A stretch of DNA of 64,000 nt, taken from assembly GCA_016176335.1 (NCBI GenBank), contig JACOXI010000004.1:18303-82302 (forward strand), in the 5' to 3' direction. Shown here one piece after another: positions 10,618 to 63,941 of this stretch. This DNA is from Candidatus Daviesbacteria bacterium (GTDB lineage Bacteria > Patescibacteriota > Microgenomatia > Daviesbacterales > UBA10151). The notes beneath the pieces were generated by a model that had not been told where the DNA came from, did no database searches, and saw nothing but the letters and a program-made list of their open reading frames with translations. Every line of letters starts with the position of its first letter. Position 1 is the first letter of the stretch. The translations under genes were made by a program, and so were the position numbers.

Positions 10618-10674
10618 AAAGAATAGTAGATGGAGTTACTATTGTCTTAAATAATGGCTCAATTGTCAGATATG

Positions 10675-10757
10675 TGGCCAGGGAGAGAGTCGAACTCTCA
10701 TGAGGTTGCCCTCAATAGTTTTTGAGACTATCCTGTCTGCCATTCCAGCACCTGGCC
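10675..10757 (-). tRNA. tRNA-Leu (anticodon CAA)
   Basis: Minus-strand read: acceptor GGCCAGG/CCTGGCC, D-loop GGAATGGCAGAC, anticodon stem ATAGT/ACTAT with loop CTCAAAA (anticodon CAA), long variable arm GAGG..CCTC, T-arm GAGAG-TTCGACT-CTCTC, discriminator A. CCA is not encoded. Confidence 0.9.
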
Positions 10758-10849: not shown

Positions 10850-13390
10850 ATGAAAAATACCCACAGACTGCCGGTACATGTTAAACCAGAGCGTTACAAG
10901 ATCATGCTCAAACCTGATTTGGAAAACTTTATCTTTGAAGGAGAAGAAACAATTTATCTAAATCTGGAAAAACCAAGCAAAGAAATTATTTTGCATTCAG
11001 CTGATCTGGAAATAGAATCTGTGGAGTGGATTCACCGGGGTGAAGAAATCTGGGCTGGGAAAATCTCATATGACAAAAAAAGAGAGACTGCCACATTTAC
11101 TTTCCCAAAATCTCTGGAAAAAGGAAAGGGTGAGTTAAAATTTAAGTTTAAAGGGATTTTGAATGATAAGATGCGGGGTTTTTACAGAAGTAAGTTTGAA
11201 GTTGATGGAGTGGTCAAACACCTGGCTACCACCCAATTTGAATCAACTGATGCCAGGAGAGCTTTTCCCTGTTTTGATGAGCCTTCCCAAAAAGCTATTT
11301 TTGATGTGACCTTGATGATCCCGTCGCATATGGTGGCCATTTCCAACACCATTGAATCAAATGTCTGGGAGCATGAAACAGGGGTAAGGGTGGTGGAATT
11401 TGAACCGACCCCAAAAATGTCCACTTACCTTTTAGCCTTTATTGTGGGGGAGTTTGAATATATAGAAGGGAAAAGGGGAAAGGGTGAAGTGGTAAGGGTT
11501 TTCACTACACCAGGGAAGAAGGATCAAGCCAAATTTGCCCTTGATGTGGCCATTAAATGTATGGATTTTTATGAAGATTATTTTGATATTCCATATCCCC
11601 TTCCGGTTTTGGACTTAATAGCCATTCCGGATTTTACTGCAGGAGCAATGGAAAATTGGGGAGCAGTCACTTACAGGGAATCGACTCTTCTTTTTGATCC
11701 TAAAAAGTCATCAGTAGGGAATAAGCAATGGATAGCATTAGTAATTGCCCACGAGTTGGCTCATCAGTGGTTTGGCAATCTGGTGACTATGGAGTGGTGG
11801 ACCCATCTTTGGCTAAATGAAGGATTTGCCTCATTTATTGAATATCTGGCAATTGATCATATTTTTCCTGATTGGGATATCTGGACTCAATTTGTAGCAA
11901 TTGAGACGGAAGAAGCCTTACGCTTAGATTCTTTAAAGAATACTCACCCGATTGAGGTGGAAGTAGGTCATCCGGCGGAGATCAGTGAGATTTTTGATAA
12001 GGTTTCTTATTCCAAGGGAGCATCAATCCTAAGAATGCTTTGGCAATATTTAGGGCCAAAATTTTTCCAAAAAGGACTGCAGTATTATTTAAAGAAACAT
12101 GCCTATGGTAATGCTCAAACAGAAGATTTATGGAATGCTTTAGGGGAAGTTTCAGGTAAGCCGGCTGGGAAGATCATGGCCAATTGGACATCGAAGCCCG
12201 GACATCCACTGATTACAGTTTCAGAACATAATGATAAATTAAAACTTACCCAATCCAGATTTTTCTCCAGTACAATTTCTAAAAGAGAAACTAAAGATGA
12301 TACAGTTTGGAGTATCCCCCTAAAATATCAAAACTCAAATGTCAAATCTCAAAACTACATGTTAAATGTCAAAACTATGAATATTCCTAAACCAAAAGAT
12401 ATGGAATGGATTAAGTTGAACGACGGGGAAGTGAGTTTTGTCAGGGTTGATTATCCGCAAGAATACTTGCAAAAACTGGAGTCAGCTATTAGAACCGGAC
12501 AATTATCTGCTCCAGACAGATTAGGACTCATCAGGGATACTTTTGATTTAGCGCAAAACGGGGCAAGTCCAACCACCTTGGCGCTGGAATTGGCCCTAAG
12601 CTATAAAAATGAAGAAGACTATACTGTCTGGAGTGAACTGACAGGAAAATTGGCTCAACTGGATTCGCTTTTATACTTTGAGAATTTTTATGAGGACTTT
12701 AAAAGATACGGAAGGGAAATTTATGGCGGAGTGGCAAATAGAATGGGATGGGAAAAGAGAAAGGGAGAAAAGTATACAGATGCGCTTTTAAGAGGGATGG
12801 TTTTACTAAGAATTGGGGCATTTGGTGATGAGGGAACCATCAAGCATGCACTGGGGCTGTTTAAAAGCAGTAGCAAGATCGCCCCGGACCTTCGTGGAGT
12901 AGTTTACAACTTGGTGGCAGAAAACGGGGGAGAGACAGAATTTAAGACCTTACTTAAAATGTACAAAGATGAAGATAACCAGCAGGAAAAAGACAGGATA
13001 GGAAGGGCTTTGGGACAACCTAAGATTAAATCTCTCCTGCAAAAGACTTTAAACTTTTCAATTTCCAAAGATGTCAGGTTTCAAAATACTTTGGGGATGA
13101 TTGCTGCAGTTTGGGGAAATGCTGAAGGCAGATATCTGGCCTGGGAGTTTGTCAAAAGTAACTGGAAGTTACTGAAAGAAAGATATGCCGGAGGGCATTA
13201 TTTTACCAGAGTTTTTGGCTCTGCAGGGGAGTTTACTAAAATTTCCGATGCCAAAGATATAGAGTCCTTTGCAAGGAACAATCCCACCCCTGAAGCTAAA
13301 AGAACCATAGCCCAGGCTTTAGAACAAATTTATTCCAATGTGGAATGGTTAAAAAGAGATAAAGAGAAGATTAAGAGCTTCTTAAGTTAA
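10850..13390 (+). CDS. pepN: Aminopeptidase N (M1 family zinc metallopeptidase)
   Basis: GAMEN motif and HELAHQWFGNLVTMEWW...E zinc-binding motif. 846 aa. Confidence 0.9.
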   Translation: MKNTHRLPVHVKPERYKIMLKPDLENFIFEGEETIYLNLEKPSKEIILHSADLEIESVEWIHRGEEIWAGKISYDKKRETATFTFPKSLEKGKGELKFKFKGILNDKMRGFYRSKFEVDGVVKHLATTQFESTDARRAFPCFDEPSQKAIFDVTLMIPSHMVAISNTIESNVWEHETGVRVVEFEPTPKMSTYLLAFIVGEFEYIEGKRGKGEVVRVFTTPGKKDQAKFALDVAIKCMDFYEDYFDIPYPLPVLDLIAIPDFTAGAMENWGAVTYRESTLLFDPKKSSVGNKQWIALVIAHELAHQWFGNLVTMEWWTHLWLNEGFASFIEYLAIDHIFPDWDIWTQFVAIETEEALRLDSLKNTHPIEVEVGHPAEISEIFDKVSYSKGASILRMLWQYLGPKFFQKGLQYYLKKHAYGNAQTEDLWNALGEVSGKPAGKIMANWTSKPGHPLITVSEHNDKLKLTQSRFFSSTISKRETKDDTVWSIPLKYQNSNVKSQNYMLNVKTMNIPKPKDMEWIKLNDGEVSFVRVDYPQEYLQKLESAIRTGQLSAPDRLGLIRDTFDLAQNGASPTTLALELALSYKNEEDYTVWSELTGKLAQLDSLLYFENFYEDFKRYGREIYGGVANRMGWEKRKGEKYTDALLRGMVLLRIGAFGDEGTIKHALGLFKSSSKIAPDLRGVVYNLVAENGGETEFKTLLKMYKDEDNQQEKDRIGRALGQPKIKSLLQKTLNFSISKDVRFQNTLGMIAAVWGNAEGRYLAWEFVKSNWKLLKERYAGGHYFTRVFGSAGEFTKISDAKDIESFARNNPTPEAKRTIAQALEQIYSNVEWLKRDKEKIKSFLS

Positions 13391-14566: not shown

Positions 14567-15130
14567 ATGGCCTTAAATGTTAATGAACTCCGAAACGGGA
14601 CGTTTTTTAAAGAAGGTTCAACAATATTCCAGGTTTTGCTTTATGAGCATGTTAAAACCGGCAGGGGTTCCGGAAATATCAAACTTAAAGTCAGAAATGT
14701 TCGCTCCGGTGCTGTTTTAGAAAAATCCTTTATTACCGGTGCCAGAGTTGATGAGGCTGATGTAGAAAAGAAAAAAGCCCAATTTTTATACAAAGATGGT
14801 GATAGTTTTAATTTCATGGATCCTCAAACTTTTGAGCAGTTTTCACTTTCGTCATCTGTTTTGGGTGAGCAAGCAAAATATCTGGTAGATGGGTTAGAGA
14901 TAACTTTGGTTGTGGGTGAGGGGGAGGCGCTTGGTTTGGAATTACCTATGAGTTTGGTGTACGAAGTTGCAGAAACAGGTCCGGGGGAGCGGGGCAATAC
15001 TGTTTCCAATGTTTATAAAGAAGCTATTTTAGACAATGGATTGGTAGTTAAGGTACCGATGTTTTTGAAAGCAGGAGAAAAAGTGAAGGTAGATACTAGA
15101 ACTGGAACTTACATAGAACGCGTTAAATGA
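14567..15130 (+). CDS. efp: Elongation factor P
   Basis: 187 aa. KDGDSFNFMDPQTFEQF and the KOW/OB domain organisation typical of EF-P. Confidence 0.9.
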   Translation: MALNVNELRNGTFFKEGSTIFQVLLYEHVKTGRGSGNIKLKVRNVRSGAVLEKSFITGARVDEADVEKKKAQFLYKDGDSFNFMDPQTFEQFSLSSSVLGEQAKYLVDGLEITLVVGEGEALGLELPMSLVYEVAETGPGERGNTVSNVYKEAILDNGLVVKVPMFLKAGEKVKVDTRTGTYIERVK

Positions 15131-15240
15131 TCTCAAATCTTAGATCTCAAAACTCAAATCTACATCTTAAAACTCAAAACTTTAAAGATTTAAGATTTGA
15201 GTTGTAGTTTTGACATTTGAGTTTTGACATTTGAGATACT
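15131..15240. repeat. Modular intergenic hairpin repeat (CAAAT/ATTTG heptamer-based family), copy 1
   Basis: Left arm tctcaaatcttagatctcaaaactcaaatctacatcttaaaactcaaaac and a near-inverted right arm. The 36-nt unit aaagttttgagttttaagatgtagatttgagttttg recurs inverted at 18705-18742. Confidence 0.7.
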
Positions 15241-15252
15241 ATAGTAAAGATT

Positions 15253-16140
15253 ATGGCAAAAAAGATTACTAAAGCACTAATACCTGCAGCCGGGTTTGGA
15301 ACTCGTTTCCTTCCTCAAACCAAAGCCATGCCTAAAGAGATGTTACCTATTGTGGACAAACCCGTGATCCAGTACGTGGTGGAAGAAGTGGTGGCATCAG
15401 GCATAGAAAACATTATTTTGGTGACAGGCGGAACAAAGCGGGCAATAGAGGATCATTTTGATGCGCCCAATGAAGATTTGGTGCAGAATTTAACAAACGG
15501 CAAAAAAACAGCTCTGTTGGAACAAATAAAACATATCTCTCAAATGGCCAACTTTATTTATGTCCGCCAAAAAGGACCATATGGAAATGGCACTCCTGTT
15601 TTGGCAGGAGAAGCTGTGATTGAGGATGAGCCTTTTGCAGTTCTTTGGGGAGATGAATTTATCTTATCAAACCCGCCGAGGTTACAACAAATGATCAAGG
15701 TTTTCGAAAAATATGGAGGAATGGTGATATCCGGTGTCAAAATAGAAAAGAAAGAAGACTTAAAAAGATATGGAATTGCCGATTTAGAGCCGGTTTCAGG
15801 CAATGTTTATAAAATCAAAAAAATCGTGGAAAAGCCGGATCCTGATCTTGCGCCCTCTGATATAGCAACCCACGGGGCATACATCCTTCCCCCGGAAATC
15901 TTCCCCGCATTAAAAAAGCAAACTGTTGGTCAGGGAGGGGAGATTTGGCTTGTTGATGCGATCAATACGCTCAAAGATGAGGGGATGCCTTTGTATGCAG
16001 TGGTTGTAGAAAATGGGAGATATTATGATACCGGAAATAAGTTGGAATATATGAAAACCGCAGTGGAGTTAGCCTTAAAGCACCCGGAAGTAGGGGAGGA
16101 TTTGAAAAAGTATCTTGCGGAATTAGTGGAAAAATCTTGA
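15253..16140 (+). CDS. galU: UTP--glucose-1-phosphate uridylyltransferase
   Basis: N-terminal ALIPAAGFGTRFLPQTKAMPKEMLPIVDKPVIQYVVEE. Confidence 0.9.
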   Translation: MAKKITKALIPAAGFGTRFLPQTKAMPKEMLPIVDKPVIQYVVEEVVASGIENIILVTGGTKRAIEDHFDAPNEDLVQNLTNGKKTALLEQIKHISQMANFIYVRQKGPYGNGTPVLAGEAVIEDEPFAVLWGDEFILSNPPRLQQMIKVFEKYGGMVISGVKIEKKEDLKRYGIADLEPVSGNVYKIKKIVEKPDPDLAPSDIATHGAYILPPEIFPALKKQTVGQGGEIWLVDAINTLKDEGMPLYAVVVENGRYYDTGNKLEYMKTAVELALKHPEVGEDLKKYLAELVEKS

Positions 16141-17910: not shown

Positions 17911-18700
17911 ACCCCCAATGAATCTTAGGAAAGTATATGAAGATGAAGATTTACTGGTTATTGACAAACCACCTGGTTTGGTAGTTGAACCCACCAAAAC
18001 AGCTAAAGCCCCAACTCTTGCCGAAATTTTGCAAAAGAGTCATGGAATTGATTTGGAAAGGGGAGGATTAATTCATAGGTTGGATAAAGATACTTCGGGA
18101 GTTTTGCTGGTTGCCAAAACCCAAAAGGCTTTGGCCAACTTACAAGCACAATTTAAGCAAAGAAAAACTAAAAAAGAATATTTGGCGCTGGTACATGGGT
18201 TTGTGGACAAAGAGGGGCAAGTGGAAGGGAACATTGGCAGGAATCCTATTAAAAGAGAGAAGTTTACAGTATTGGCAGATGAAGGCAAGGAGGCAGTTAC
18301 GGAGTATGAACCGGTAGGAAATTTTCAATTTTCAATTTTCAATTTTCAATCAATTTTCAATGATTTAAATGAGATTCAAATGAGGAAACTGGAAAGAATG
18401 AAATATAACCAATTTACTCTGCTGTCCTGTCGTCCTCTTACTGGACGGACACACCAAATTAGGGTACATTTAAAGTATATAAATCATCCGATTGTTTCGG
18501 ACCAAATTTATGCGGGCAGGAAAATGTACAGGTTAGATAAAAGATGGTGTCCAAGGCAATTTTTGCATGCTAAAAAGATTGGATTTTATCATCCTCGGAG
18601 CGGGAAGTGGATGGAGTTGGAGAGTGAGTTACCCTATGATTTAGAAAATGCATTGGGTAATCTCAAATCTCAAATGTCAAATGTCAAAACTATAACTTAA
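17885..18700 (+). CDS. RluA-family pseudouridine synthase (RluD-like) carrying an in-frame heptamer-repeat insertion
   Basis: Catalytic motif HRLDKDTSGVLLVAKT and GRTHQIRVHL. An NFQFSIFNFQSIF stretch is encoded by (ttttcaa)n at about 18320-18362. Confidence 0.85.
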   Translation: MSLVPKRLKPPMNLRKVYEDEDLLVIDKPPGLVVEPTKTAKAPTLAEILQKSHGIDLERGGLIHRLDKDTSGVLLVAKTQKALANLQAQFKQRKTKKEYLALVHGFVDKEGQVEGNIGRNPIKREKFTVLADEGKEAVTEYEPVGNFQFSIFNFQSIFNDLNEIQMRKLERMKYNQFTLLSCRPLTGRTHQIRVHLKYINHPIVSDQIYAGRKMYRLDKRWCPRQFLHAKKIGFYHPRSGKWMELESELPYDLENALGNLKSQMSNVKTIT

Positions 18701-18762
18701 ATCTTTAAAGTTTTGAGTTTTAAGATGTAGATTTGAGTTTTGCGATTTACGTTTTGAGTTAT
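18655..18762. repeat. Modular intergenic hairpin repeat, copy 2 (overlaps the last codons of the rluA-family gene)
   Basis: tctcaaatctcaaatgtcaaatgtcaaaac...aaagttttgagttttaagatgtagatttgagttttgcgatttacgttttgag. Shares units with 15131-15240 and 57335-57520. Confidence 0.7.
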
Positions 18763-20475
18763 ATGAATAATATTTTTATACAATTGGCAATAATTTTGGG
18801 TTTATCCTCGTTTTTGGGTTACGGTGTAGTTAAATTTAAATTGCCGCTTTTGATTGCTTACCTTATAGGAGGGCTGTTGATTGCTACCACCGCTATTTTC
18901 GATCCTCGGGCATCGGAGGTCTTGCATTTCTTGCCTGAAATAGGGATTGCTTTCGTGCTTTTTTTAGTTGGAATGGAGCTTGACCTTCGGGAGATCAAAA
19001 GTTTGGGAAAACCGATACTTTTGGCAGGAACCTTACAGATTATTATCACCACCATTACAGGGTCTACTGTTGCAAAACTGTTAGGTTTTGGATCTTTGGA
19101 ATCATGGTATTTGGGAGTGGGACTGGCCTTCTCCTCAACTATCCTGGTTATTAAACTGCTGATTGATAAAAAAGATGTGGGGGCGCTATATGGAAAACTG
19201 GCTGTAGGGATATTACTTTTGGAGGACCTTTTAGCGGTATTACTGTTGGTGATGTTGACAGTTTCTACGTCCATTTTTGGTTTAGGTTTTCAACAAGCTT
19301 TCCCTTACTTGACCTTAGTTTTTAAGGCAGCACTTTTATTTGTCTTGGCGCTTTCTTTAAGCAGGTTTATCCTGCCCACTATATTTAAAGCGGTGGCCAA
19401 ACAGAATGAATTGCTGTTTATCACTGCTTTAGCTTGGTGTTTTATTTATATTTCATTTGCAATTTTCCTAGGTTTTTCTGTTGTGATTGGTGCTTTTTTG
19501 GCAGGAGTGGCTTTGGCAAACTCACCCTTCCATTATCAGATCCAAGGAAAGGTAAAACCTTTACGGGAGTTTTTTGTAGCCTTATTTTTTGTTTATTTAG
19601 GCACCCGGGTAGATTTTACGGAAATAGGCAAGATCTATCCCCTGATACTTATTTTTACAGGCTATACTTTAGTGGTAAAGCCTACCATCTTTTTACTGAT
19701 TTTGGGAAGTTTTGGATTCAGAAAGCATACCATGTTTCAGACAGCCTTAAGCCTGACTCATATCAGCGAGTTTTCTTTGATACTGCTGCTTGTCGGTTTT
19801 CAGTTTGGAGTGGTCAGTCAATCGGCGCTGACCGTGATAGCCTTATCAGCAGTACTTTCAATGATTATAGCGTCAGTTGTAATTACGCATTCCAACAGAC
19901 TGTACAGAAAGTTCAAGAACTTTTTGAGTTTTTTTGAAAGAAAAAACTACAAACACTTCTTAGAAACGAGTAGTCATGACCAAAAAAATCTCACGGGGCA
20001 TATCATAGTGATTGGTGCGCGAAAAGTAGGAGGGGAGATTGTTAAACTGCTAAAAAGAGAAAAAATCCCCCAAATAGTTTTAGACTTCAACCCTTATCAG
20101 GTAGAGGCATTGACAGAAGAGAAAATACCGGTACTTTATGGGGATATGGGAGATCCGGAGGTTTTGGACGGGTTAGATTTGCCAAATGCCAGACTAATAA
20201 TCTCAACATCTGCCAGTTTGGAGGACAACCTGCTTTTGCTGGAAGAGCTAAAATCAAGACATATTAACATACCGGCGATAATCAGGGCGGATACGGCTGA
20301 TGATGCAAAGGATTTATATAAAGCCGGGGCGGATTTTGTGATAATACCGGAGATTCTGGCAGGGGATTTCTTGGTAGAAAAACTCAAAGACCATCTAAAT
20401 AGCGGAGAATTCTTTAAGGATAGAGGGAAGGTTGAATTGGAAAGACTATCCAAAAAAACCCTGGCTTGGGAATGA
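18763..20475 (+). CDS. CPA2-family monovalent cation:proton antiporter with C-terminal TrkA-N/RCK domain (KefB-like)
   Basis: About 12 TM helices followed by a Rossmann-type RCK domain: IIVIGARKVGGEIVKLL. Start taken at the ATG at 18763, just after the repeat. Confidence 0.8.
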   Translation: MNNIFIQLAIILGLSSFLGYGVVKFKLPLLIAYLIGGLLIATTAIFDPRASEVLHFLPEIGIAFVLFLVGMELDLREIKSLGKPILLAGTLQIIITTITGSTVAKLLGFGSLESWYLGVGLAFSSTILVIKLLIDKKDVGALYGKLAVGILLLEDLLAVLLLVMLTVSTSIFGLGFQQAFPYLTLVFKAALLFVLALSLSRFILPTIFKAVAKQNELLFITALAWCFIYISFAIFLGFSVVIGAFLAGVALANSPFHYQIQGKVKPLREFFVALFFVYLGTRVDFTEIGKIYPLILIFTGYTLVVKPTIFLLILGSFGFRKHTMFQTALSLTHISEFSLILLLVGFQFGVVSQSALTVIALSAVLSMIIASVVITHSNRLYRKFKNFLSFFERKNYKHFLETSSHDQKNLTGHIIVIGARKVGGEIVKLLKREKIPQIVLDFNPYQVEALTEEKIPVLYGDMGDPEVLDGLDLPNARLIISTSASLEDNLLLLEELKSRHINIPAIIRADTADDAKDLYKAGADFVIIPEILAGDFLVEKLKDHLNSGEFFKDRGKVELERLSKKTLAWE

Positions 20476-24189: not shown

Positions 24190-24960
24190 ATGAGTGGACA
24201 TTCTAAATGGTCAACCATTAAAAGACAAAAAGGGGCTGCAGATATAAAAAGAGGGCTTAACTTTACTAAAGTGGCTAATGCCATTACCATCGCAGTTAAA
24301 GTGGGTGGTTCTCCTGATGCGGAGTCTAACCCAAGACTGAAGGCTGCCATGGAAGCAGCTAAAGCTGTTAATATGCCTAAGGAAAATGTGCAAAGGGCCA
24401 TTGATAGGGGTTTGGGCAGATTACCTGGCCAGGTTTTAGAAGAGGTCTTTTTTGAGGGTTTTGGACCTTATAAAGTGGCATTTTTGGTGGAAGGGGTCAC
24501 TGATAACAAGTTAAGGACCTTACAAGAAGTTAAAAGTCTGTTTGAACATTCAGGGGGAAACCTGGCAGGGCAGGGAGCTGTTTCTTATATGTTTGATAAA
24601 ATGGGGGAGATTAAAGTAAGGGGACAGCGGGCCCCCGAAGGGGAGGGTGACAGGGAACAGGAAATGTTACAGTTAATAGATTTAGGGGCAGAAGATGTTG
24701 AAGAGTTTATTGAGGGTGGAATACAAGGATATTTAGTATATACAAAAAGCCCAGAACTTAATACTATGGGTAACAAAATTACTCAAGCAGGGTATGGAGT
24801 GGAGAGCCAGGAGTTAATATATAAACCAACTGTTTTGGTGGAGATTAATAATAAAGAGCAAGCGCAAAAAGTGCTGGAATTTACAGGGAAGTTGGAAGAA
24901 TTGGATGATGTGCAAAAAGTATACGCAAATTTTGATATTGATGAACAGTTGATCGGATGA
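24190..24960 (+). CDS. yebC: YebC/PmpR-family DNA-binding transcriptional regulator
   Basis: N-terminal MSGHSKWSTIKRQKGAADIKRG is the YebC family signature. Confidence 0.9.
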   Translation: MSGHSKWSTIKRQKGAADIKRGLNFTKVANAITIAVKVGGSPDAESNPRLKAAMEAAKAVNMPKENVQRAIDRGLGRLPGQVLEEVFFEGFGPYKVAFLVEGVTDNKLRTLQEVKSLFEHSGGNLAGQGAVSYMFDKMGEIKVRGQRAPEGEGDREQEMLQLIDLGAEDVEEFIEGGIQGYLVYTKSPELNTMGNKITQAGYGVESQELIYKPTVLVEINNKEQAQKVLEFTGKLEELDDVQKVYANFDIDEQLIG

Positions 24961-24999
24961 TTGGATGATTAGATAATTGGTTAATCACAAAAATAAGCA

Positions 25000-25386
25000 A
25001 TGGCCCAAAGCTTTAATGAATTGAGGATCTGGCAAATAAGCGAACAGTTAGTGGTAAAGATTTATAAAATGACAGATATATTTCCTAAAGACGAAGTTTA
25101 TAACATAGTTTCTCAACTCCGGCGTGCTGCCGTATCAATACCCACTAATATAGCTGAAGCTCATGGTCGATATCATGATGCAGAAACTATTCACTTCTTA
25201 TATAATGCACGAGGTTCAGCCGAAGAGGTGAGAAGTTTGTTGATGACTTCATTGGATCTTGGTTATATTACTAATGATATTTTTCAACAAACGAATGAGG
25301 AATATCTCAACTTGATTAGGAGTATTAATAGTTTTGTTAGAGCTATAAGAAAAACTAATCAACCAATTAACCAATTATCTGATTAA
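25000..25386 (+). CDS. Four-helix-bundle protein (TIGR02436-like, 23S rRNA intervening-sequence protein family)
   Basis: WQISEQLVVKIYKMTDIFPKDEVYNIVSQLRRAAVSIPTNIAEAHGR is the hallmark of this family. Confidence 0.8.
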   Translation: MAQSFNELRIWQISEQLVVKIYKMTDIFPKDEVYNIVSQLRRAAVSIPTNIAEAHGRYHDAETIHFLYNARGSAEEVRSLLMTSLDLGYITNDIFQQTNEEYLNLIRSINSFVRAIRKTNQPINQLSD

Positions 25387-25388
25387 CT

Positions 25389-25922
25389 ATGATAATTTTA
25401 GGTATTGATCCTGGTACAGCTACAACAGGTTATGGAGTTATAAAAATACCTGATGATATTTTAGGTAGGGAATTCAAGTATGGTATTGAGCTGATTACTT
25501 ATGGCAATATACACACTCCAAAAGAAAGATTGATGCAGGATCGGTTGCAGATGATTCACTCGGAGCTGACTAAAATAATAAAACAATATAAACCGGATCA
25601 AATGATTTCCGAGATGCTTTTTTTTGGGGCAAATACCCGGACTGCCATTATGGTGGGCCAAGCTAGGGGAGTGATCATGCTTACAGCAGCTCAATTCAAG
25701 ATTCCTTTTCAAGATTACACTGGTCCCCAGATAAAACTGATGGTGGCAGGATCTGGCAGGGCGGATAAGAATCAGGTTCACGACGGGGTCAGAAAATTTT
25801 TAGGCACACCTGGAAGAAGAAGAAACAAACTTAAGGTAAACTGGAAGGGTGGCCACTTGGATGATGCCACAGATGCTTTGGCCATTGCCATTTGCCATGT
25901 ATTAAAATTGGCAGCAAAATGA
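25389..25922 (+). CDS. ruvC: Crossover junction endodeoxyribonuclease RuvC
   Basis: MIILGIDPGTATTGYGV N-terminus with catalytic Asp, plus the conserved HDGV/DALAIAICH region. Confidence 0.9.
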   Translation: MIILGIDPGTATTGYGVIKIPDDILGREFKYGIELITYGNIHTPKERLMQDRLQMIHSELTKIIKQYKPDQMISEMLFFGANTRTAIMVGQARGVIMLTAAQFKIPFQDYTGPQIKLMVAGSGRADKNQVHDGVRKFLGTPGRRRNKLKVNWKGGHLDDATDALAIAICHVLKLAAK

Positions 25923-26689: not shown

Positions 26690-26697
26690 TTTAAAAA

Positions 26698-26725
26698 TTT
26701 CTAATTTCTAATTTCTAATTTCTAA
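26698..26725. repeat. Heptamer microsatellite (tttctaa)x4
   Basis: Direct tandem tttctaatttctaatttctaatttctaa, visible in the sequence. Confidence 0.8.
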
Positions 26726-27571
26726 ACTAAGAGGGGGAGTAGAGGGGTATATAGAATTATATAAACGTGAAAAATTTAGCGGAAATTCGTGAAAACTAGG
26801 GTTGATACAGTATGATGTAGTTAACAGGTATGAATGTGGAAAACTATAGGTCTCGTGGTGCTCGCTTCGCTTACTCCTTTGCGAGCCTGCGAGTGTTACG
26901 CTACTATTACGTTTGAGTGGTACAATAGCGCTTCTCTCCTTGATAACCTTTATATTTTATCAGCACTAGATTGATATAGTTGCTAATTAAACCCGAAGGA
27001 GTCGGAGAAGAGTGTGTCTTGGACGTACCTGTAACTAAAGCAATAGAAGTGCAAGAATACAGATTGGTGTTTTGTCTTTATGGTTTTAAATTCTTTATCC
27101 TCTTTTAAGCAAAACCTCCTGCTACCCAATTTTGATGTCGGACAATATAAGAAAACAACAAAATCGGAGAAGTGGTCAGATTCTCAAATTCCTTATTAAA
27201 TAAGAGATTTGGTGAGGAAGTTTAAGAATTTTTTCAGGTGCCCAAAAACGGTAATTCCCGTCCAAAATTTTATTATTTTAGAAATTTAAATTTTAAAATA
27301 TATCAATATTTAGTTTGGGCTTTCCTGACAACATAATCTGGATGATGGTAGGGTGGCACCCTCCCCCAATAAGCCGTTTTTGGGCCATTACAGGGCTTGG
27401 TGCCTAAACGTGCCCAGAGCGTAATGAAGAATAGCAGTCATTGTGTTAATGGGCTCACTCCATAATGTTTTGCGGGCCCCGATAGCGTCTAGAAGCTTAT
27501 TTGGTCACTTAGATATATTATATTGCTGGCCTCAAATTACTACTTGACAACACTTATGTAGGCTTGATATT

Positions 27572-33008: not shown

Positions 33009-33802
33009 GAATTCAAAATGTTTTTCAAACTGCCTTCGGCAGAACAAAATTCAAAATTCAAAATTACAATTCAAAATTTAAAATTTTTAAAACTTTTTAC
33101 TTTTTACTTGCATTTTTGACTTTTAATTTTTACCTTTTAACTTTTCCCACCCCTGCGCTTGCCCAAGCCGCCACCCTGTCCCTTTCTCCCTCCTCGGGCA
33201 CATTTAACAGGAGCTGTACCATTACTTTGGATATCAGATTGGATACAGCGGGAGCTCAAACAGACGGTACAGATGCGATCTTAACTTATGACTCATCAAG
33301 ACTTACTGCTACCTCAATTACAAGCGGAAATATCTATCCTGATTATCCCGGAAATAATATTGATGATACGAACGGGAAGATTACTGTTTCAGGTTTAGCC
33401 TCTGTTTCTTCTGCTTTTTCCGGGCAAGGAAGTGTTGCTACGGTCAAATTTACGATTAAAGATAACGCTCCAACAGGTGCAACTCAAGTCAAGTTTGATT
33501 TTGACCCGTCCGATAAAAGTAAAACTACAGATTCCAATGTAGTACAAAGAGGTACTGCTTCGGATATATTAAGTTCGGTGGTGAATGGAAATTATAATGT
33601 TGGAACAGGCACATGCGCCGCCGCACCCGCAACAGCCGTAAAAGGAGGACAAGGAGCTGTTTCCACACCATCAGGTAAAACTCTCGATCAGTTAGTAGAC
33701 AAAACAGGAAAAGGACCAGGCACACCCGAGCTCACCTTTACCCTGACAATTGTGGGATCGGTTTTGGTAGTGTTGGGAATTTTAGGATTGGCACTACTCT
33801 AA
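33005..33802 (+). CDS. Cohesin-domain protein with signal peptide and C-terminal membrane anchor (paralog of 32424..33008)
   Basis: ILTYDSSRLTATSITSGNIYPDY, NGKITVSGLAS and GSVATVKFTIKDNAPTGATQVKF match the cohesin consensus. C-terminal TM LTIVGSVLVVLGILGLALL. The N-terminal ~30 codons are built from the repeat family (ctgccttcggcagaacaaa + attcaaa units). Confidence 0.65.
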   Translation: MRIQNVFQTAFGRTKFKIQNYNSKFKIFKTFYFLLAFLTFNFYLLTFPTPALAQAATLSLSPSSGTFNRSCTITLDIRLDTAGAQTDGTDAILTYDSSRLTATSITSGNIYPDYPGNNIDDTNGKITVSGLASVSSAFSGQGSVATVKFTIKDNAPTGATQVKFDFDPSDKSKTTDSNVVQRGTASDILSSVVNGNYNVGTGTCAAAPATAVKGGQGAVSTPSGKTLDQLVDKTGKGPGTPELTFTLTIVGSVLVVLGILGLALL

Positions 33803-33930
33803 TCTCAAATCTTAGATCTCCCGTCAAAGACGAGGCTCGCTCGCCTCGTGGCGAAGCAATGGGCCTCTGGCGGCAAATCGCAAATCTGCAACTTATGACA
33901 TTTGAGTTTTGAGATAATAATGTCGTACAA
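33803..33930. repeat. Modular intergenic hairpin repeat, copy 3, with embedded GC-rich palindromic insert
   Basis: tctcaaatcttagatctc ... [cgaggctcgctcgcctcgtggcgaagc ...] ... acatttgagttttgagata. The termini match copy 1. Confidence 0.65.
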
Positions 33931-33935
33931 TATTA

Positions 33936-34826
33936 TTGATGCAACTGTCCAATCTAATTACTGACTTCCTGGAATATTTAGAACTTGAGCGAAACGCCTC
34001 CCAACTGACAATTAAAAACTATGACTATTACCTGAAAAGATTTTTGGAATTTGCCCGCTCGCCATCGCTACGCTCAGGCGTTAGCGGGCGAGCCGGAAAT
34101 ATTAGCCCCAGAGAAATCAATCTGGACTTGGTCGGGAAATACAGGCTATACCTGTCCCGAAAGCCGCTAAAACGCATCACCCAAAACTTTTTTCTGATTG
34201 CCCTGCGGGCATTTTTGAGATACTTGGCGCAAATTGATATCACCACCCTACCTCCCCAAAAAGTGGAGCTTTGGGAAACAGACGCGCGACCGATAAATTT
34301 TTTGGACCAAACTCACTTGAGATTTCTGCTTAAGGCTCCTGATATAACTAAAAAGGATGGTATGCGCGACCGTGCTATTTTGGAGATGCTTTTTTCAACC
34401 GGTCTGCTTGTATCGGAATTGGCATCCTTAAATTGCGACACAATTAATTTAGGAAGTTGGGAATTTCGGATCATTGGAAAAGGAGGGAAAGAGCGGGTGG
34501 TTTTCATTTCCGATTCCGCTCATGGATGGTTGAGAAAATACCTAATGGTCAGAAAAGATACTTTTAAGCCCTTATTTATCAGGTTTCAAGGAAAAGTTGA
34601 CCCTGCAAACGGCGGTGAATCAATGAGATTGACTACTCGCTCTATTGAGAGAATCGTAGAAAAATATGCTAGCCGGCTGGGTTTGCCTATCAAGGTTACT
34701 CCCCACACATTAAGGCACTCATTTGCAATGGATTTGCTGACCTCCGGCGAGGATATAAGATCTGTTCAAGAAATGTTAGGTCACTCCTCTATCTCCACCA
34801 CGCAAATTTATACACGTCACAAATAA
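33936..34826 (+). CDS. Tyrosine site-specific recombinase XerD/XerC-like, with a GC-rich in-frame insertion
   Basis: Catalytic motifs HTLRHSFAMDLLTSGEDIRSVQEMLGHSSISTTQIYTRH. Insertion RSPSLRSGVSGRAGN is encoded by gcccgctcgccatcgctacgctcaggcgttagcgggcgagcc. Confidence 0.85.
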   Translation: MMQLSNLITDFLEYLELERNASQLTIKNYDYYLKRFLEFARSPSLRSGVSGRAGNISPREINLDLVGKYRLYLSRKPLKRITQNFFLIALRAFLRYLAQIDITTLPPQKVELWETDARPINFLDQTHLRFLLKAPDITKKDGMRDRAILEMLFSTGLLVSELASLNCDTINLGSWEFRIIGKGGKERVVFISDSAHGWLRKYLMVRKDTFKPLFIRFQGKVDPANGGESMRLTTRSIERIVEKYASRLGLPIKVTPHTLRHSFAMDLLTSGEDIRSVQEMLGHSSISTTQIYTRHK

Positions 34827-37959: not shown

Positions 37960-40533
37960 TTAATCGCCATTTTTAGCATCAGCTGTTTTTTCTTTAGATG
38001 AAACAGTTGTTGCCGCCGCCACTTTTTCCCCTGCTCTTACCCTCATTAAAATCACTCCTTGGGTTTGTCTCTGCAGGGTTGGAACTTCTTTAAGGCTCAT
38101 TTTAATCAGCTGACCTTTGGTTGAGGTTAAAACCAACGTATCTTTGGATTTGTCCACAATCTGGGCTGTCACTATCTGACCTGTTTTAGCAGTAATTTGT
38201 GCCGCTTTCACTCCTTGCCCTCCCCTTCCCTGCCTTGACCAGCCTGTTGTTTTAGTTTTCTTTCCTAAACCATTTTCCATCACTACCAAAAGCTCTCCCT
38301 CGATCTTCCCTAATGTATTTAAAGATACCACCTCATCATCTTTTCCAAGCCTTATGCCTCTAACTCCAGATGTATCTCTATGAGTGGGTTTAACCCCTTT
38401 TTCCCAAAACCTGATAGACTTACCTTTTTTGGAAACAATGATGACATCATCATTCCCTGTTGTTGGGGCAACCCAACCCAAAATATCACCCGGGTCAAGC
38501 TTGATTGCAACCAAGCCACTTTTTCTGATATTGGCATATTCATCTAAAGAAGTTTTTTTAACAGTGCCGCGCCCGGTACACATAAAGAAGTATTTGGCGC
38601 TTTCACGGTTTCCTCGGGTGGTCAACACAGCAGTAACTTTCTCCTCTTGTTCAACATTAATCAGATTTACAATGGCTTGACCTTTGGCCGCCCTTTGAGT
38701 TTCAGGAATTTCCCAAACTTTAATTTGGAAAACCCTACCTTTATCTGTAAAAAATAATAAACTGTCATGGGTCTGGGTATAGAAGATATGGGACACTGCA
38801 TCTGTTTCTTTGGTGGAGATCCCCATCACTCCTTTTCCACCCCGCTGTTGTGTCCTAAAAGAGTGAGGAGCTTGTCTTTTGATATATCCCCCCTCGGTGA
38901 TGGTGACAATAGTGATCTCATTTGGTACCAAATCTTCCTCGTTAAACTCACCAATTTTTTGTTTATAAACCCTTGTTCTTCTGTCATCGGCATACTTTTC
39001 TTTAATTCTGACAAGTTCCTCTTTGATCACTTTCAGGATTTTTTCAGGGTGGAGAAGCAAGTCCTCAAGGTAGGCAATCAGTTCTTTAACCATCTTTAGT
39101 TCATCTTCAATCTTTTGCCGCTCCAGCGCAGCCAGACGCCGCAGTTGCATGTCTAAAATAGCAACAGACTGGATCTCCGTAAGCTTAAATTTAACCATCA
39201 AATTCTGCTTTGCAGAATCCGCATCCTTACTTTTTTTGATGGTTTCAATGACCTCGTCAATATGCAAAACAGCGATTTGTAATCCTTCCAAGATATGTTC
39301 CCTGGCGCGAGCTTCGCTCAACTCAAATTCAGACCTTCTTCGCACAATAGTTTGCCTGTGTCTTATAAACTCCTCCAAAATGTGTTTTAAGGTCAAAAGG
39401 TGCGGGACTCCGTCAACCAAAGCAACCAAATTAACATTAAATACAGATTGCATGGCTGTTGATTTATAGAGGTTGTTTAAGAGGGATTGGGGTTTGGCAT
39501 CCCTTTTTAGATCAAACACGATCCGAACCATTTGTTTTCTGTCTGATTCGTCCCGCAAATCCCCAATCCCCTCCAGTTTTTTGTCTTTTACCATGTCTGC
39601 AATTCTGGCAATTAATGTTGCTTTGTTAACTTGGTACGGAAGTTCCGAGACAATAATCTGCATTTTTCCTGCCGGCGTCTCATCAATTTCCGCTTTTGCT
39701 CTTATGACAATCCGCCCCTTCCCTGTGCCATAGGCTGCCAAAATTTCACTTTGATCATAAATTGAGCCTCCTGTTGGAAAGTCTGGGCCTTTGACAAATC
39801 GCACCAGGTCTTCAACAGTAGCAGCAGAAGAAAAGCTATCAGTCTTCAGTACCGCTTCGCCCGCCTTTGGCGAGGCTTCGCTCTCCGTCGTCAGATCTGA
39901 TGACTGATGACTGATGACTGATGACTCTTTTGCCGGGTGTTCTATCATATAAATTAGGGCATCGCACACCTCCCCCAAGTTATGCGGCGGGATTTGAGTT
40001 GCCATACCAACAGCAATACCGGAGGCGCCATTAAGCAGTAAATTAGGTATAACAGATGGGAGTACAACAGGTTCTTGTATAGTTCCTGAATAATTATCCA
40101 CAAAATCAACGGTATTTTTGCCAATATCCCGCAGTAATTCCCCGGAGATTGCTGCCAACCGTGCTTCCGTATACCTCATGGCTGCAGGTGAATCCCCATC
40201 AATAGATCCAAAATTTCCCTGTCCGTCAATCAACATATATCTCATGGAGAAATTTTGAGCCATCCTGACCATGGCCTCATAAACCGGAGCATCGCCGTGC
40301 GGGTGTAAATTCTTCAAAACCTCACCAACCACAGCTGCACTTTTTTGATATCTAGACGTGTGGTGTAATCCCTGCTCATGCATGGCAAAAACAATTCTTC
40401 TTTGCACGGGCTTTAAGCCGTCCCGCACATCAGGCAGGGCGCGGGACACAATAACAGACATGGCATAGTCAAGGTATGACCTTTTCATCTCTTCTATAAT
40501 TGGAGATGGTTGTATTTTGCCGATGTTTGCCAT
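37960..40533 (-). CDS. gyrA: DNA gyrase subunit A, with a ~30-aa in-frame insertion containing a (tgatgac)x4 tandem and a GC-rich palindromic segment
   Basis: N-terminal [10 protein letters not shown] and [11 protein letters not shown]-terminal beta-pinwheel repeats. Insertion [31 protein letters not shown] lies before GPDFPTGG, encoded at about 39840-39925. Confidence 0.9.
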
Positions 40534-45897: not shown

Positions 45898-45962
45898 AAG
45901 GTAACCCTTCGACTGGTTCGACTACTTCGACTTCGCTCACCACAAGTCCGCTCAGGGTGAAA

Positions 45963-54008: not shown

Positions 54009-57317
<3,309 letters not shown>

Positions 57318-57334
57318 TTAAGTATAGTTTACTA

Positions 57335-57520
57335 CAAAATAATCTCAAATGTTAGATCTTAAATGTCAATCCTTCGATTACACTCAGGATGATACTGAGC
57401 GAAGTCGAAGTATCAAAACTACAACTTTTAACTGCCTTCGGCAGAACAAATCTAAAATCTACTAAAAAGTTTTAAGATTTACGATATAGATTTGCGTTTT
57501 GCGATTTGAGTTTTGAGTTA
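57335..57520. repeat. Modular intergenic hairpin repeat, copy 4 (composite)
   Basis: aatctcaaatgttagatcttaaatgtcaat...ctgagcgaagtcgaagtatc...ctgccttcggcagaacaaa...gatttgcgttttgcgatttgagttttgag. Shares sub-modules with 15131, 18655, 33803, 33018-33090 and 45900-45950. Confidence 0.65.
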
Positions 57521-58159
57521 TCTTGCCTTTGGCATTTTTAGCATTAAATATTCCAAAATTGCCCTAATGTTGACATTTTGTGCGGCCCATTTTTCAGCTT
57601 CTATAAGTTCTTTTAAAAAGTTTAATTCTTCACCTTTCAGGTGGGATCGTAGATTTTGGTGGAAGTACTGGATTAGAAAATGTAGAAACTCCTCCCTGTT
57701 TTTTAATTTCTCAATATATTCAAATCTCTCTTCCATGCTTGCAGCCAGCAGCTTTTCTACTTTCTCCATGTTATCTACGTCCGGTGTGTCAGGTTGGTCC
57801 TGGAGGTTGATTATTTGACAACGAGATACCACAGTTGGTAAAAGCTTGGCATCTGAATCTGCCCCTAAAATAAATAGAGCATCCTTTGGTAATTCCTCAA
57901 TGGTTTTCAAAAGGGCGTTTTGGGCCTCAATTGTTAAATTTGTAGCGTCTGCCAAAACAACCGATCTTCCTTTCGATTGATATGGTTTTAGAGAAAAGTG
58001 TCCCTTGATGGCTCTTGCTTGTTCTATCCCTAGTTTGGAGCTTTCCTGAAAATACAAAAGATCAGGATGGGGGTTTTTAAATCCTTCTTCCCCCAAAATT
58101 TCCTTTATAAACTTCTGCCGTTCACTTGAGTTGGAAGATATCAAAAGCCTGGCAATCAC
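57518..58159 (-). CDS. holB: DNA polymerase III subunit delta' (clamp-loader AAA+ like)
   Basis: Degenerate Walker-like region, TVVSRCQ sensor motif, and the size typical of delta'. Confidence 0.65.
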   Translation of the reverse strand: MIARLLISSNSSERQKFIKEILGEEGFKNPHPDLLYFQESSKLGIEQARAIKGHFSLKPYQSKGRSVVLADATNLTIEAQNALLKTIEELPKDALFILGADSDAKLLPTVVSRCQIINLQDQPDTPDVDNMEKVEKLLAASMEERFEYIEKLKNREEFLHFLIQYFHQNLRSHLKGEELNFLKELIEAEKWAAQNVNIRAILEYLMLKMPKAR

Positions 58160-59961: not shown

Positions 59962-60035
59962 GGGTAAGGGTAAACCGTAAAGGGTAAAGAAAAAAAATAC
60001 TTTCCCCTTAACGTTTCACGCTTTACCCTAACATT

Positions 60036-63018: not shown

Positions 63019-63941
63019 TGTGGTGGGGATCAGCAGGTTTTGTCATTGGTACAATTTTAGGGAGTTTTGTTAAGGTGCTGGCTGATCGGAGTTTAAACAA
63101 CAGGTCTTTTTGGGGAAGGTCATACTGCCCTAAGTGCAAACATCAATTGCACTGGTACGATCTTATTCCTATTGTTTCATATATTAACCTTACAGGTAGG
63201 TGTCGTTATTGTAATAAAAAGATAGGTTCAGAATATATCCTGGTTGAAGTGGTAATGGGTGTTTTGGTGGGTTTTCTCTTTTGGCAAAGCTCATCAAATT
63301 TTCAATTTTCAATTCTTAATTTTCAATCAATACTTAATTTTCAATTTTCAATTTTTTTGCTGGAACTGGTTCTTAAAACTTTTTTTGTCGTCATACTTTT
63401 GGCGCTTTTTATTACGGATTTTAAAAAAATGCTTATTCCCGATAGGATTATCATTCCGTCCATAGTTTTAGGAATAATAGCCAACCTACTGCTTGTTTTT
63501 TTAAAAACAGGTTATCTTTATTTTTACCTTTCCCAAAATATAATTGGCAAGTTTCTTCTCCCCCCGCACAGTGACTATTTCAGGAGGCATGCTCTGATGA
63601 TTGCGGAGCCTTTTTTGTATTCTGTAGTTTTGGCCATGGCAATTGGCGGATTTTTTTTAAGTTTGATCATTATTACCAAAGGTAGAGGAATGGGAGGCGG
63701 AGATGTAAAATTAGGTATATTTTTAGGGTTGATGTTAGGTTTCCCCCAGGCTGTTTTGGCAATGGTTTTGGCGTTTATTATCGGTGCTGTCTTTTCCATA
63801 TTCTTAATACTTTTAAAGAAAAAAAGATGGGGTCAGATAATAGCTTTTGGCCCTTTTTTGGTTTTGGGAAGTTTCATTACTCTTTTTTGGGGCAATCAGA
63901 TTTTAGAGTGGTATCTGCATATACTACTGCCTGCTACTTGA
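63006..63941 (+). CDS. pilD: Prepilin peptidase PilD (A24 family), carrying an in-frame heptamer-repeat insertion
   Basis: N-terminal zinc ribbon CPKCKHQL...CRYCNKKI and catalytic Asp regions. NFQFSILNFQSILNFQFSIF is encoded by (ttttcaa)-type repeats at about 63295-63355. Confidence 0.8.
   Translation: MYLLMWWGSAGFVIGTILGSFVKVLADRSLNNRSFWGRSYCPKCKHQLHWYDLIPIVSYINLTGRCRYCNKKIGSEYILVEVVMGVLVGFLFWQSSSNFQFSILNFQSILNFQFSIFLLELVLKTFFVVILLALFITDFKKMLIPDRIIIPSIVLGIIANLLLVFLKTGYLYFYLSQNIIGKFLLPPHSDYFRRHALMIAEPFLYSVVLAMAIGGFFLSLIIITKGRGMGGGDVKLGIFLGLMLGFPQAVLAMVLAFIIGAVFSIFLILLKKKRWGQIIAFGPFLVLGSFITLFWGNQILEWYLHILLPAT

Follow-up and report, generated by a model that had tools for sequence, protein, structure and literature searches.

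What are the composite hairpin repeats that recur between, and in places within, the genes of Candidatus Daviesbacteria, a member of the candidate phyla radiation (CPR)? The question is raised by a 64-kb stretch of this genome, referred to here as the window, in which an earlier reading of the letters (the original prediction) had flagged a family of such repeats, the locus at 15131 among them. It had placed composite repeats at four intergenic loci, and all four are confirmed, as comparison of the window with itself groups the loci into shared families of direct and inverted repeats. We favor the view, with a probability of about 0.6, that the flagged repeats are copies, devoid of an open reading frame (ORF), of a mobile palindromic cassette of the type known as the intervening sequence (IVS) of 23S rRNA, linked to the protein family PF05635. 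This view is based on the occurrence of one arm family both with and without a PF05635 gene, at junctions of a like kind. The proposal of a family similar to transposable elements of the miniature inverted-repeat type (MITEs) or repetitive extragenic palindromic (REP) sequences is right for the most part, with an ORF-less derivative of IVS-type PF05635 cassettes as the better description.

Palindromic elements with heptamer arms

Four full and two partial copies of the family lie in the 64 kb. The flagged intergenic copies, the half copy in the M1 peptidase gene and the related insert at the cohesin N-terminus belong to one repeat family, with the following members (a strand is given for the coding copies):

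15131-15252: ORF-less hairpin in the efp/galU spacer; palindrome at 15131-15238 (arm A, then arm B) and a 14-nt tail at 15239-15252
18659-18764: ORF-less hairpin in the rluA/nhaP-like spacer, oriented the other way (arm B before arm A); 85% match over 100 nt to 15132-15231, inverted
33803-33938: hairpin at 33803-33917 and A/T-rich tail at 33918-33938, before the ATG (33939) of a tyrosine-recombinase gene
57341-57521: composite element in the holB-like/gyrB spacer (both genes on the minus strand); arms B and A, broken by two nested GC-rich modules
12321-12381, plus strand: single arm in frame in the M1 peptidase gene (four heptamers, CTACAT and two heptamers), encoding KYQNSNVKSQNYMLNVKT; arm profile E 9e-14
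33020-33145, plus strand: N-terminus of the cohesin-domain ORF, made of CAAAATT / ACTTTTT heptamers; 33020-33070 is a 51-nt in-frame insert

The full elements are non-coding, 106-181 bp long, and end in TAATCTCAAAT ... ATTTGAGAT(A/T). A degenerate 20-nt terminal pattern, TRATCTCAAATSTYARATST, has four exact matches, one per locus, with 0 expected from 100 dinucleotide-preserving shuffles, and an internal 13-mer, ATTTGAGTTTTGA, allowed at most one mismatch, has 7 matches in the window versus 0.57 expected. In the comparison with shuffled sequence that had been suggested for them, the copies are thus far above chance. The termini said to be common to 15131 and 33803, TCTCAAATCTTAGATCTC, are exact at both positions, and exact copies of CTGCCTTCGGCAGAACAAA stand at 57432 and, within coding sequence, at 33030. 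A 36-nt unit had also been claimed in opposite orientations. It is indeed present, exactly, at 18707-18742 (+) and, reverse-complemented, at 15148-15183, which is 10 nt off the interval first given for it (15158-15193). An nhmmer profile of the arm matches 15131 and 18659 in both arms, 57341 in its right arm, and also the arm in the M1 peptidase, with E values of 1e-13 to 1e-15, and weaker partial arms are found at 57341, 33801, 33893 and 33045.

Every arm is a run of about seven degenerate heptamers of the CTCAAAT type, (C/G)TCAAA(A/T), with a period of 7 in Tandem Repeats Finder (TRF). The aligned arms follow a fixed, irregular order: TAA-TCTCAAAT, three further heptamers, the 6-nt CTACAT, CTTAAAA, CTCAAAA and the central palindrome CTTTAAAG. 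The original prediction had missed this 7-nt periodicity, as well as the link to PF05635 and intervening sequences and the insertion at stop/start overlaps described below. Two arms, A and B, can be told apart in each element, and their order is A-B at 15131 and 33803 and B-A at 18659 and 57341. Arms of the same type in different elements are 80-90% identical (90% for 15131 left and 18659 right, 84% for 18659 right and 57341 right, 80% for 15131 right and 18659 left), whereas the arms inside a single element are 67-76% identical (76% and 67%). Because same-type arms of different elements are closer than the two arms of one element, whole elements have been copied, in both orientations.

In the hairpin, the invariant TCAAA/TTTGA cores are paired, and mismatches fall at the variable positions, about one per 7 nt. 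The elements have built-in stop codons, with TAA at both ends and TAG in the CTTAGAT unit. GC-rich mini-hairpins are nested in two copies, namely in the 33803 element (a module at ~33821-33872) and in the 57341 element (modules at 57372-57412, CCTTCGA..CTCAGGATGA..GAGCGAAGTCGAAG, and at 57430-57450, AACTGCCTTCGGCAGAACAAA). The coding insert at 33020-33070 is composed of a 29-nt mini-hairpin module, CTGCCTTCGGCAG, and duplicated heptamers. It is noted that a second, GC-rich repeat type (CCTTCGA...GCTCAGG(A/G)TGA, GAGCGAAGTCGAAG) is found in the intergenic spacers at 1040-1130 and 45898-45962 as well as at 57372-57412, nested in the 57341 element; its translations resemble junk peptides of the SLRG/LRMT type inserted in peptidase and RluA orthologs.

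Empty junctions and PF05635 cassettes

To evaluate mobility, the junctions that carry an element in the window were compared with those of relatives (contigs and loci from outside the window are given L numbers). All four comparable element-bearing junctions, three ORF-less sites and one PF05635 cassette site, are empty in relatives:

efp/galU: ATGA overlap in L158 and L159, while in L157 the site is taken by a hairpin with different heptamers (TCATAAA); 122-nt insert in the window
rluA/nhaP: ATGA overlap in L160 and L161; element present in the window, with rluA reading into it
cohesin gene/tyrosine recombinase: TAATG overlap in L165 and L162-164 (protein 91% identical); 136 nt between stop and start in the window
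yebC/ruvC: ATGA overlap in L178; 428-nt PF05635 cassette in the window

The mobile character proposed for the family is therefore supported by the four empty junctions together with the copying of whole elements in both orientations. The 15131 element is flanked by ATGA (15127-15130) and ATGG (15253-15256), and the yebC/ruvC cassette by ATGA on both sides (24957-24960 and 25389-25392); the downstream proteins keep their N-terminal length at both sites. These flanks suggest duplication of the 4-bp overlap as their simplest account. At rluA/nhaP there is a right-hand ATGA only, at 18765 before the nhaP-like gene, with no left copy, and the cohesin/recombinase site is ambiguous. Since only the right-hand ATGA is present, the rluA frame extends 42 nt into the 18659 element and stops at an internal TAA of the element (18698-18700), which gives RluA a 12-residue tail. 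A fixed target-site duplication of TA or TAA was rejected as inconsistent among the copies; the search pattern used is in part responsible for the left-hand TAA in relatives.

Full two-arm matches to the arm profile are found only in CPR contigs: L088/L129 (Daviesbacteria), L131, L133, L135, L145-L147 and L149. The family pattern is absent from 2.9 million viral contigs, by which a viral origin was ruled out. No transposase lies beside the elements in the related loci, and the only ORF-bearing relatives of the family carry PF05635. It should be mentioned that Logan contigs from six sequencing runs (L001, L002, L122-L126), with efp or galU identical to the window, all end inside the 15131 element, and that L122 also ends at an (AATTTTC)n array in rluA; repeats fragment the assemblies of this organism. 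The breaks were not taken as a sign of many genomic copies, as the 36-nt block common to two window copies explains them.

The ORF-bearing form is represented in the window by the following cassette:

24961-25388, plus strand: PF05635 cassette of 428 nt at the yebC/ruvC junction, with inverted 7/8-mer arms around the gene

Its gene (25000-25386; Pfam E 8.6e-35) encodes a four-helix bundle homologous to PDB 2GSC, and its arms, 24961-24999 and ~25345-25388, cofold at -32.4 kcal/mol. The flagged family itself is joined to PF05635 in L135, where two of its arms (E 7e-10 and 1.5e-8 to the window arm profile) surround a 116-residue PF05635 ORF (Pfam E 1.9e-20). When the inner arm ends of L135 (..TTAAATCT + ORF + TAAAGTTTTGAG..) are joined, they give the center of the window ORF-less copy, TTAAATCTTTAAAGTTTTGAG, within one base. 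A tblastn search of plasmids for PF05635 returned 33 records, mostly from cyanobacteria and Riemerella, and 12 of them were fetched. The fetched genes are typically co-directional inserts between operon genes (e.g. cas6/cas4 and cas10/cmr3), and the arms extend from the stop codon upstream as far as the ATG downstream. Among the fetched records is a genuine helix-45 23S rRNA IVS, that of Azospirillum (L176), which has (GGACGGA/GGACAGA)n arms. Periodic 7/8-nt arrays are present on both flanks of 12 of the 14 PF05635 genes examined, which come from cyanobacteria, Bacteroidota, CPR and one genuine 23S rRNA IVS, versus 0 of 60 other genes of the window (Fisher 4e-12).

As separate observations, an orthologous gene without a Pfam match is present at L158 741-1188 and L159 6591-6666, and its 5' heptamer hairpins differ between the two (AGGGTAT/CCCTAAT and AGGTTAC/GTAACCT). 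On plasmids of Nostoc, Calothrix and Anabaena (L171-L173), PF05635 genes are bordered by the heptamers AGGGTGT and AGGTGAC, called the same as those of L158/L159.

Coding copies, RNA folding and other arrays

The in-frame units that had been claimed in the peptidase, at the 3' end of rluA and at the cohesin N-terminus are real and in frame. Comparison with orthologs also bears out the claimed remodelling of proteins, in the form of a lineage-specific peptidase insert, the RluA tail and the N-terminal block of the cohesin-domain protein. In the M1 peptidase, the position after WSIPL is a hotspot of insertion and deletion, and about half of 116 orthologs have no insert there. The heptamer-derived insert KYQNSNVKSQNYMLNVKT is found in the window peptidase and in P0002, several other orthologs have related inserts of the K(T/I)QN type, and others have translated GC-rich repeats, such as SLRG...RNDG, at the same site. 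At the DNA level this site is empty in L158 and L159 and holds an (AGTACCA)n array in L157. The RluA tail, NLKSQMSNVKTIT, is seen in the window protein only, among the 70 orthologs displayed, and a few others have different repeat-derived tails. The closest ortholog of the cohesin-domain protein is without the 17 N-terminal residues, encoded by the 51-nt block that holds the GC module.

Further arrays and hairpins of other heptamer types, including in-frame arrays in rluA, pilD and gyrA that had been overlooked, are present in the window:

18320-18361, plus strand: in-frame (AATTTTC)n array in rluA (NFQFSIFNFQSIF), like the array type at 63297-63355 in a pilD-like gene
39897-39926, minus strand: in-frame (GTCATCA)x4 with an adjacent GC-rich module in gyrA, after ~residue 202, splitting the Pfam domain match
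59962-60032: hairpin of another heptamer type (GGGTAAA / TTTACCC), occupying the pilB/pilT spacer from stop codon to start codon

The rluA array has a conserved position and all of its units change together, being AATTTTC x4 in the window and AATTTAC x4 in L160, with peptide pairs such as RLQ..RLQ and KCQ..KCQ. Such concerted change among species means that arrays also evolve in situ, through a slippage-like homogenization. In other Patescibacteria (L016, L037, L104, L105 and L114), (ATCTCAA)n is found in frame in leucyl-tRNA synthetase genes (..APEHK IISNLKSQISNL SEVENY..), with two sites in one gene of L037.

Folding agrees with the long imperfect inverted repeats that had been described: on either strand, the four elements form long imperfect hairpins, with z values between -3.1 and -5.7. 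A modest folding advantage of the sense strand is seen in three of the four window copies, and also in L088, L145, L149, L128 and the rpoA/rplQ copies of relatives. The further suggestion that the elements provide terminators does not hold in the window, where none of the four copies precedes a T-run and none is terminator-like in a scan. The stems are A/T-rich and are followed by TACTATAG.., TTATATGA.. and TAATAATG...; in view of the missing U-run, these copies are not classical terminators. A T-run accompanies only the short versions in the rpoA/rplQ spacer of relatives, and these alone qualify as intrinsic terminators. Boxes similar to a -10 element lie 7 nt before a start codon at 15240 (TATAGT-7-ATG), at 33926 (TACAAT-7-ATG) and in L157 (TATAAT-7-ATG). 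The first of these is in the tail of the 15131 element, before the galU ATG, as part of a promoter-like TTGAGT-17-TATAGT, and the 33803 element has outward promoter-like sites at both ends. A scan of the window with Rfam at gathering thresholds gave no matches, and permissive settings gave sub-threshold matches to generic long-hairpin miRNA precursors or nothing. The gathering scan did not report a tRNA-Leu(CAA) that ARAGORN found at 10674-10757 (-), so the Rfam null is not absolute.

Two other non-coding features were noted. At 57306-57319 (-), in the stretch that separates the 57341 element from the start codon of gyrB, a small GC hairpin runs into a series of T (AAGCCTTAGGGCTT TTTTAT), downstream of a promoter-like TTGAGA-16-TATACT; it may act as a 5' leader hairpin or as a terminator. 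A DUF5656 gene and a tyrosine-recombinase gene are separated by 882 nt devoid of an ORF (26690-27571), in which a perfect (AATTTCT)x4 array directly follows the stop codon. L178 has a similar gap of 835 nt between the same two genes; Rfam gave no match in the window gap, which could be an undescribed non-coding RNA or a degraded element.

Heptamer arrays of many sequence types fill Daviesbacteria-related genomes. A looser pattern was matched at no fewer than (at least) 119 loci in many phyla, which are mostly plain (ATCTCAA)n arrays, not the composite element, in mixed gene contexts. ATCTCAA arrays of 3-9 units were seen in Cyanobacteria (many in Microcoleus and Nostoc), Planctomycetota, Verrucomicrobiota, Bacteroidota, Acidobacteriota, Chloroflexota and CPR. 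In 26 of 120 cases the start of an ORF follows closely on the array, and in Microcoleus the array lies in the loop of a conserved GGTCAAT...ATTGACC stem.

Proposed mechanism, alternatives and meaning

We propose that the cassette has two forms. The full form would consist of an array of ~5-8 heptamers, a PF05635 four-helix-bundle gene and the inverted array, and the short form of the two arms only, a ~50-bp hairpin with a mismatch about every 7 nt, probably derived by loss of the ORF. Both forms insert exactly at stop/start overlaps, ATGA or TAATG. A duplicated ATGA would restore the stop as well as the start, so that insertion does little harm; without the duplication, the ORF upstream runs to a built-in stop of the element and acquires a new protein tail. 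Single arms and arrays also land in frame in permissive protein loops, and the small GC-rich hairpin modules insert into the A/T-rich arms. Since the elements are inside operons, they are presumably transcribed, and RNase III would most likely cut the stem in the operon transcript and so separate two cistrons. By analogy with rRNA IVS and Correia elements, the ~50-bp imperfect stem is a plausible RNase III substrate. The last heptamers, TTGAGA or TTGAGT, together with the tail form a predicted outward promoter that may serve the downstream gene.

The closest known system is the 23S rRNA IVS with an S23p/PF05635 ORF (Leptospira, Coxiella, Brucella and the Xanthomonas group). It likewise has a long stem of inverted repeats, with or without an ORF of ~120 aa for a four-helix bundle in the loop, and copy-variable heptamers beside the ORF (GACAGAT in Coxiella; PMC4990558); the heptamer arms of L176 are like those of the window cassette, and sizes are comparable (428 nt in the window). 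In Coxiella these heptamers vary among strains, and the IVS as a mobile element is an unresolved idea (PMC4990558). IVS stems are excised by RNase III in Coxiella, Salmonella and Leptospira (PMC4990558). The Avd protein found in diversity-generating retroelements is a homolog of PF05635 (PMC10053308). The window copies differ from the rRNA IVS in location, being between or within protein genes, with no rRNA in the window and no placement in helix 25 or helix 45. The flagged copies are also ORF-less, multi-copy and interrupted by nested GC-rich modules, and cleavage is proposed for them by analogy only. The heptamers of the Coxiella IVS, excision by RNase III and the idea of a mobile element are already known; the literature searched has no paper that generalizes the heptamer-arm architecture or describes ORF-less derivatives.

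Several observations weigh against an IVS-type cassette. Clean ATGA duplication is seen at only two of the four sites, and selection for a stop and a start codon would demand part of the ATGA pattern anyway. The association of PF05635 was tested on a small set with heterogeneous controls, and all 60 control genes come from a single genome. Only 1 of the 119 cross-phylum array loci has a PF05635 gene, so that arrays could be a general feature in which PF05635 genes merely sit. PF05635 has, to our knowledge, no known catalytic activity. Among the ~60 ORFs of the window there is no transposase and there are two tyrosine recombinases only, and no recombinase or transposase is tied to the elements. 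With regard to RNA, the sense advantage is limited to the CTCAAAT family, as hairpins of other heptamer types show no strand asymmetry, and promoter-like matches are not enriched overall. Compensatory base-pair changes were found in 0 of 23 pairs, with a covariation term of +2.2, among seven full-length copies; selection on RNA structure is for this reason not demonstrated.

An ordinary MITE family, that is, deletion derivatives of a conventional insertion sequence (IS) whose transposase is elsewhere in the genome, with PF05635 as an occasional passenger or neighbor, is in our estimation unlikely. The elements are short and non-coding with terminal inverted repeats, their copies are dispersed in both orientations, the three ORF-less sites are empty in relatives, and module nesting and outward -35-like ends are further typical traits of MITEs (reviewed in PMC10969869). 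However, no transposase of a parent IS with matching termini is among the window ORFs, nor does a transposase lie beside the elements in related loci. The arms are tandem heptamers and not a unique terminal inverted repeat, an ORF-bearing PF05635 cassette shares the arm family and the kind of junction, PF05635 genes are associated with arrays across phyla, and the pattern is lacking in the viral contigs. The Correia repeat-enclosed elements, a Neisseria MITE, are similar in being ~100-200 bp, intergenic, with inverted ends, and co-transcribed with flanking genes (PMC10969869). RNase III cleaves their hairpins, promoters of the sigma-70 type arise from their ends (PMC10969869), and the window copies have comparable outward TTGAGA/TTGAGT -35-like boxes. 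In contrast, there is no sequence similarity, the arms in the window consist of heptamers in tandem, the putative duplication at stop/start overlaps is of ATGA and not of TA, and the window copies have no known site for integration host factor. REP sequences and bacterial interspersed mosaic elements (BIME), the REPIN-RAYT systems (RAYT being a Y1 transposase) and the pneumococcal BOX, RUP and SPRITE repeats share with the family a short, palindromic, modular and multi-copy nature, insertion into one another and location between operon genes. They differ in unit structure, the window has no RAYT gene, and REP is strictly extragenic whereas the window family is also coding. The latter property is met with in Rickettsia palindromic elements (RPE), palindromes that often lie in frame in unrelated housekeeping genes and add peptide segments (PMC10969869), as observed here for the M1 peptidase, RluA, GyrA, PilD and the cohesin-domain protein. 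RPE differ in host phylum and probably in sequence, and the coding copies of the window are half elements or plain arrays, the complete palindromes being intergenic.

The remaining explanations do without a mobile cassette. Host-selected RNA elements, such as terminators, attenuators or mRNA-stabilizing hairpins, would be alike through recognition by one host factor and not through movement. They could account for the short version with conserved stem, variable loop and T-run that is kept at the rpoA/rplQ spacer in at least 12 related contigs, where changes are of U-A to U-G only, and for the sense strand that usually folds better. Yet the window copies have no T-run, lie in both orientations and also inside coding sequence, and show no covariation, and close relatives are empty at housekeeping junctions that work well overlapping, which makes this account improbable. 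It is more improbable still that no mobility is involved at all, with arrays arising by replication slippage of A-rich sequence, palindromes by template switching and the likeness by convergence. Heptamers are the commonest long simple sequence repeat (SSR) unit in prokaryotes (Mrazek 2007, to the extent cited in PMC4679880), many types fill these genomes, different types occupy the same sites in different lineages, and the rluA array evolves in concert between the window and L160. Slippage covers such array turnover but not the dispersal of the family, in which A and B arms are inherited as pairs and distant loci share the 36-nt exact block and the irregular order of four heptamers, CTACAT, CTTAAAA, CTCAAAA and CTTTAAAG. 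Known heptanucleotide SSRs, namely the short tandemly repeated repetitive (STRR) sequences of cyanobacteria, TAACTGA in Beggiatoaceae and GGACCGG / MTYCTGA in Geobacter, are also short tandem 7-nt arrays, intergenic (often from stop to start) and sometimes genic, with a patchy distribution over phyla including Cyanobacteria and Bacteroidota (PMC4679880, PMC2700814). The window units share their period of 7 and change together, whereas the window family departs from a plain array, being a composite palindrome in dispersed copies whose units follow a fixed, irregular order. Least probable, and very much so, is that the arrays are sites for a heptad-recognizing DNA-binding protein, nucleoid-associated or centromere-like, with an incidental hairpin. 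The invariant TCAAA/TTTGA core amid variable flanking positions, the absence of structural covariation and the proposal of paired heptamer arrays in Geobacter as global-regulator sites (PMC2700814) are in line with it. Against it, there is no candidate protein, the heptamer sequence varies widely among loci of one genome, and arrays tolerate translation. Ribbon-helix-helix proteins are known to bind heptad operators.

Three other candidates were rejected. Integron attC sites are imperfect palindromes that follow each ORF of a one-directional cassette array beside intI, whereas the window copies are scattered among housekeeping genes (efp, galU, rluA, gyrB) in both orientations, with no cassette array. 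Pairs of DNA uptake sequences were ruled out by context and copy density. TIGR-Tas arrays consist of 36-nt units in tandem, which carry box C/D motifs as well as edge and loop repeats, and lie beside a Nop-domain Tas gene (PMC12045711); here the period is 7 and not 36, and the window has no Nop-domain protein.

An extension of the IVS-type reading, which we regard as doubtful, is that PF05635 genes everywhere (in rRNA IVS, cas operons and housekeeping operons) are cargo of one widespread, unrecognized class of cassettes with inverted heptamer-array ends that target ATGA overlaps and thereby insert harmlessly. The pentameric Avd-like protein would bind arrays of ~5-7 heptamers and help to propagate or process the cassette, and ORF-less offspring would explain much of the heptamer load (STRR, TAACTGA and the like) in Cyanobacteria, Bacteroidota, Planctomycetota, CPR and others, along with new loops, tails and signal-peptide segments in proteins.

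For ~30 years the function of the 23S rRNA IVS and its S23p/PF05635 protein has awaited an answer, as has the origin of the heptamer repeats that abound in many bacterial phyla. The window joins both problems in a testable way, as it offers one arm family with and without the PF05635 gene, at like sites, with clean pairs of filled and empty junctions. For CPR genomics, the finding accounts for assembly breaks, for spurious or extended ORF termini, and for lineage-specific inserts in essential proteins such as GyrA.

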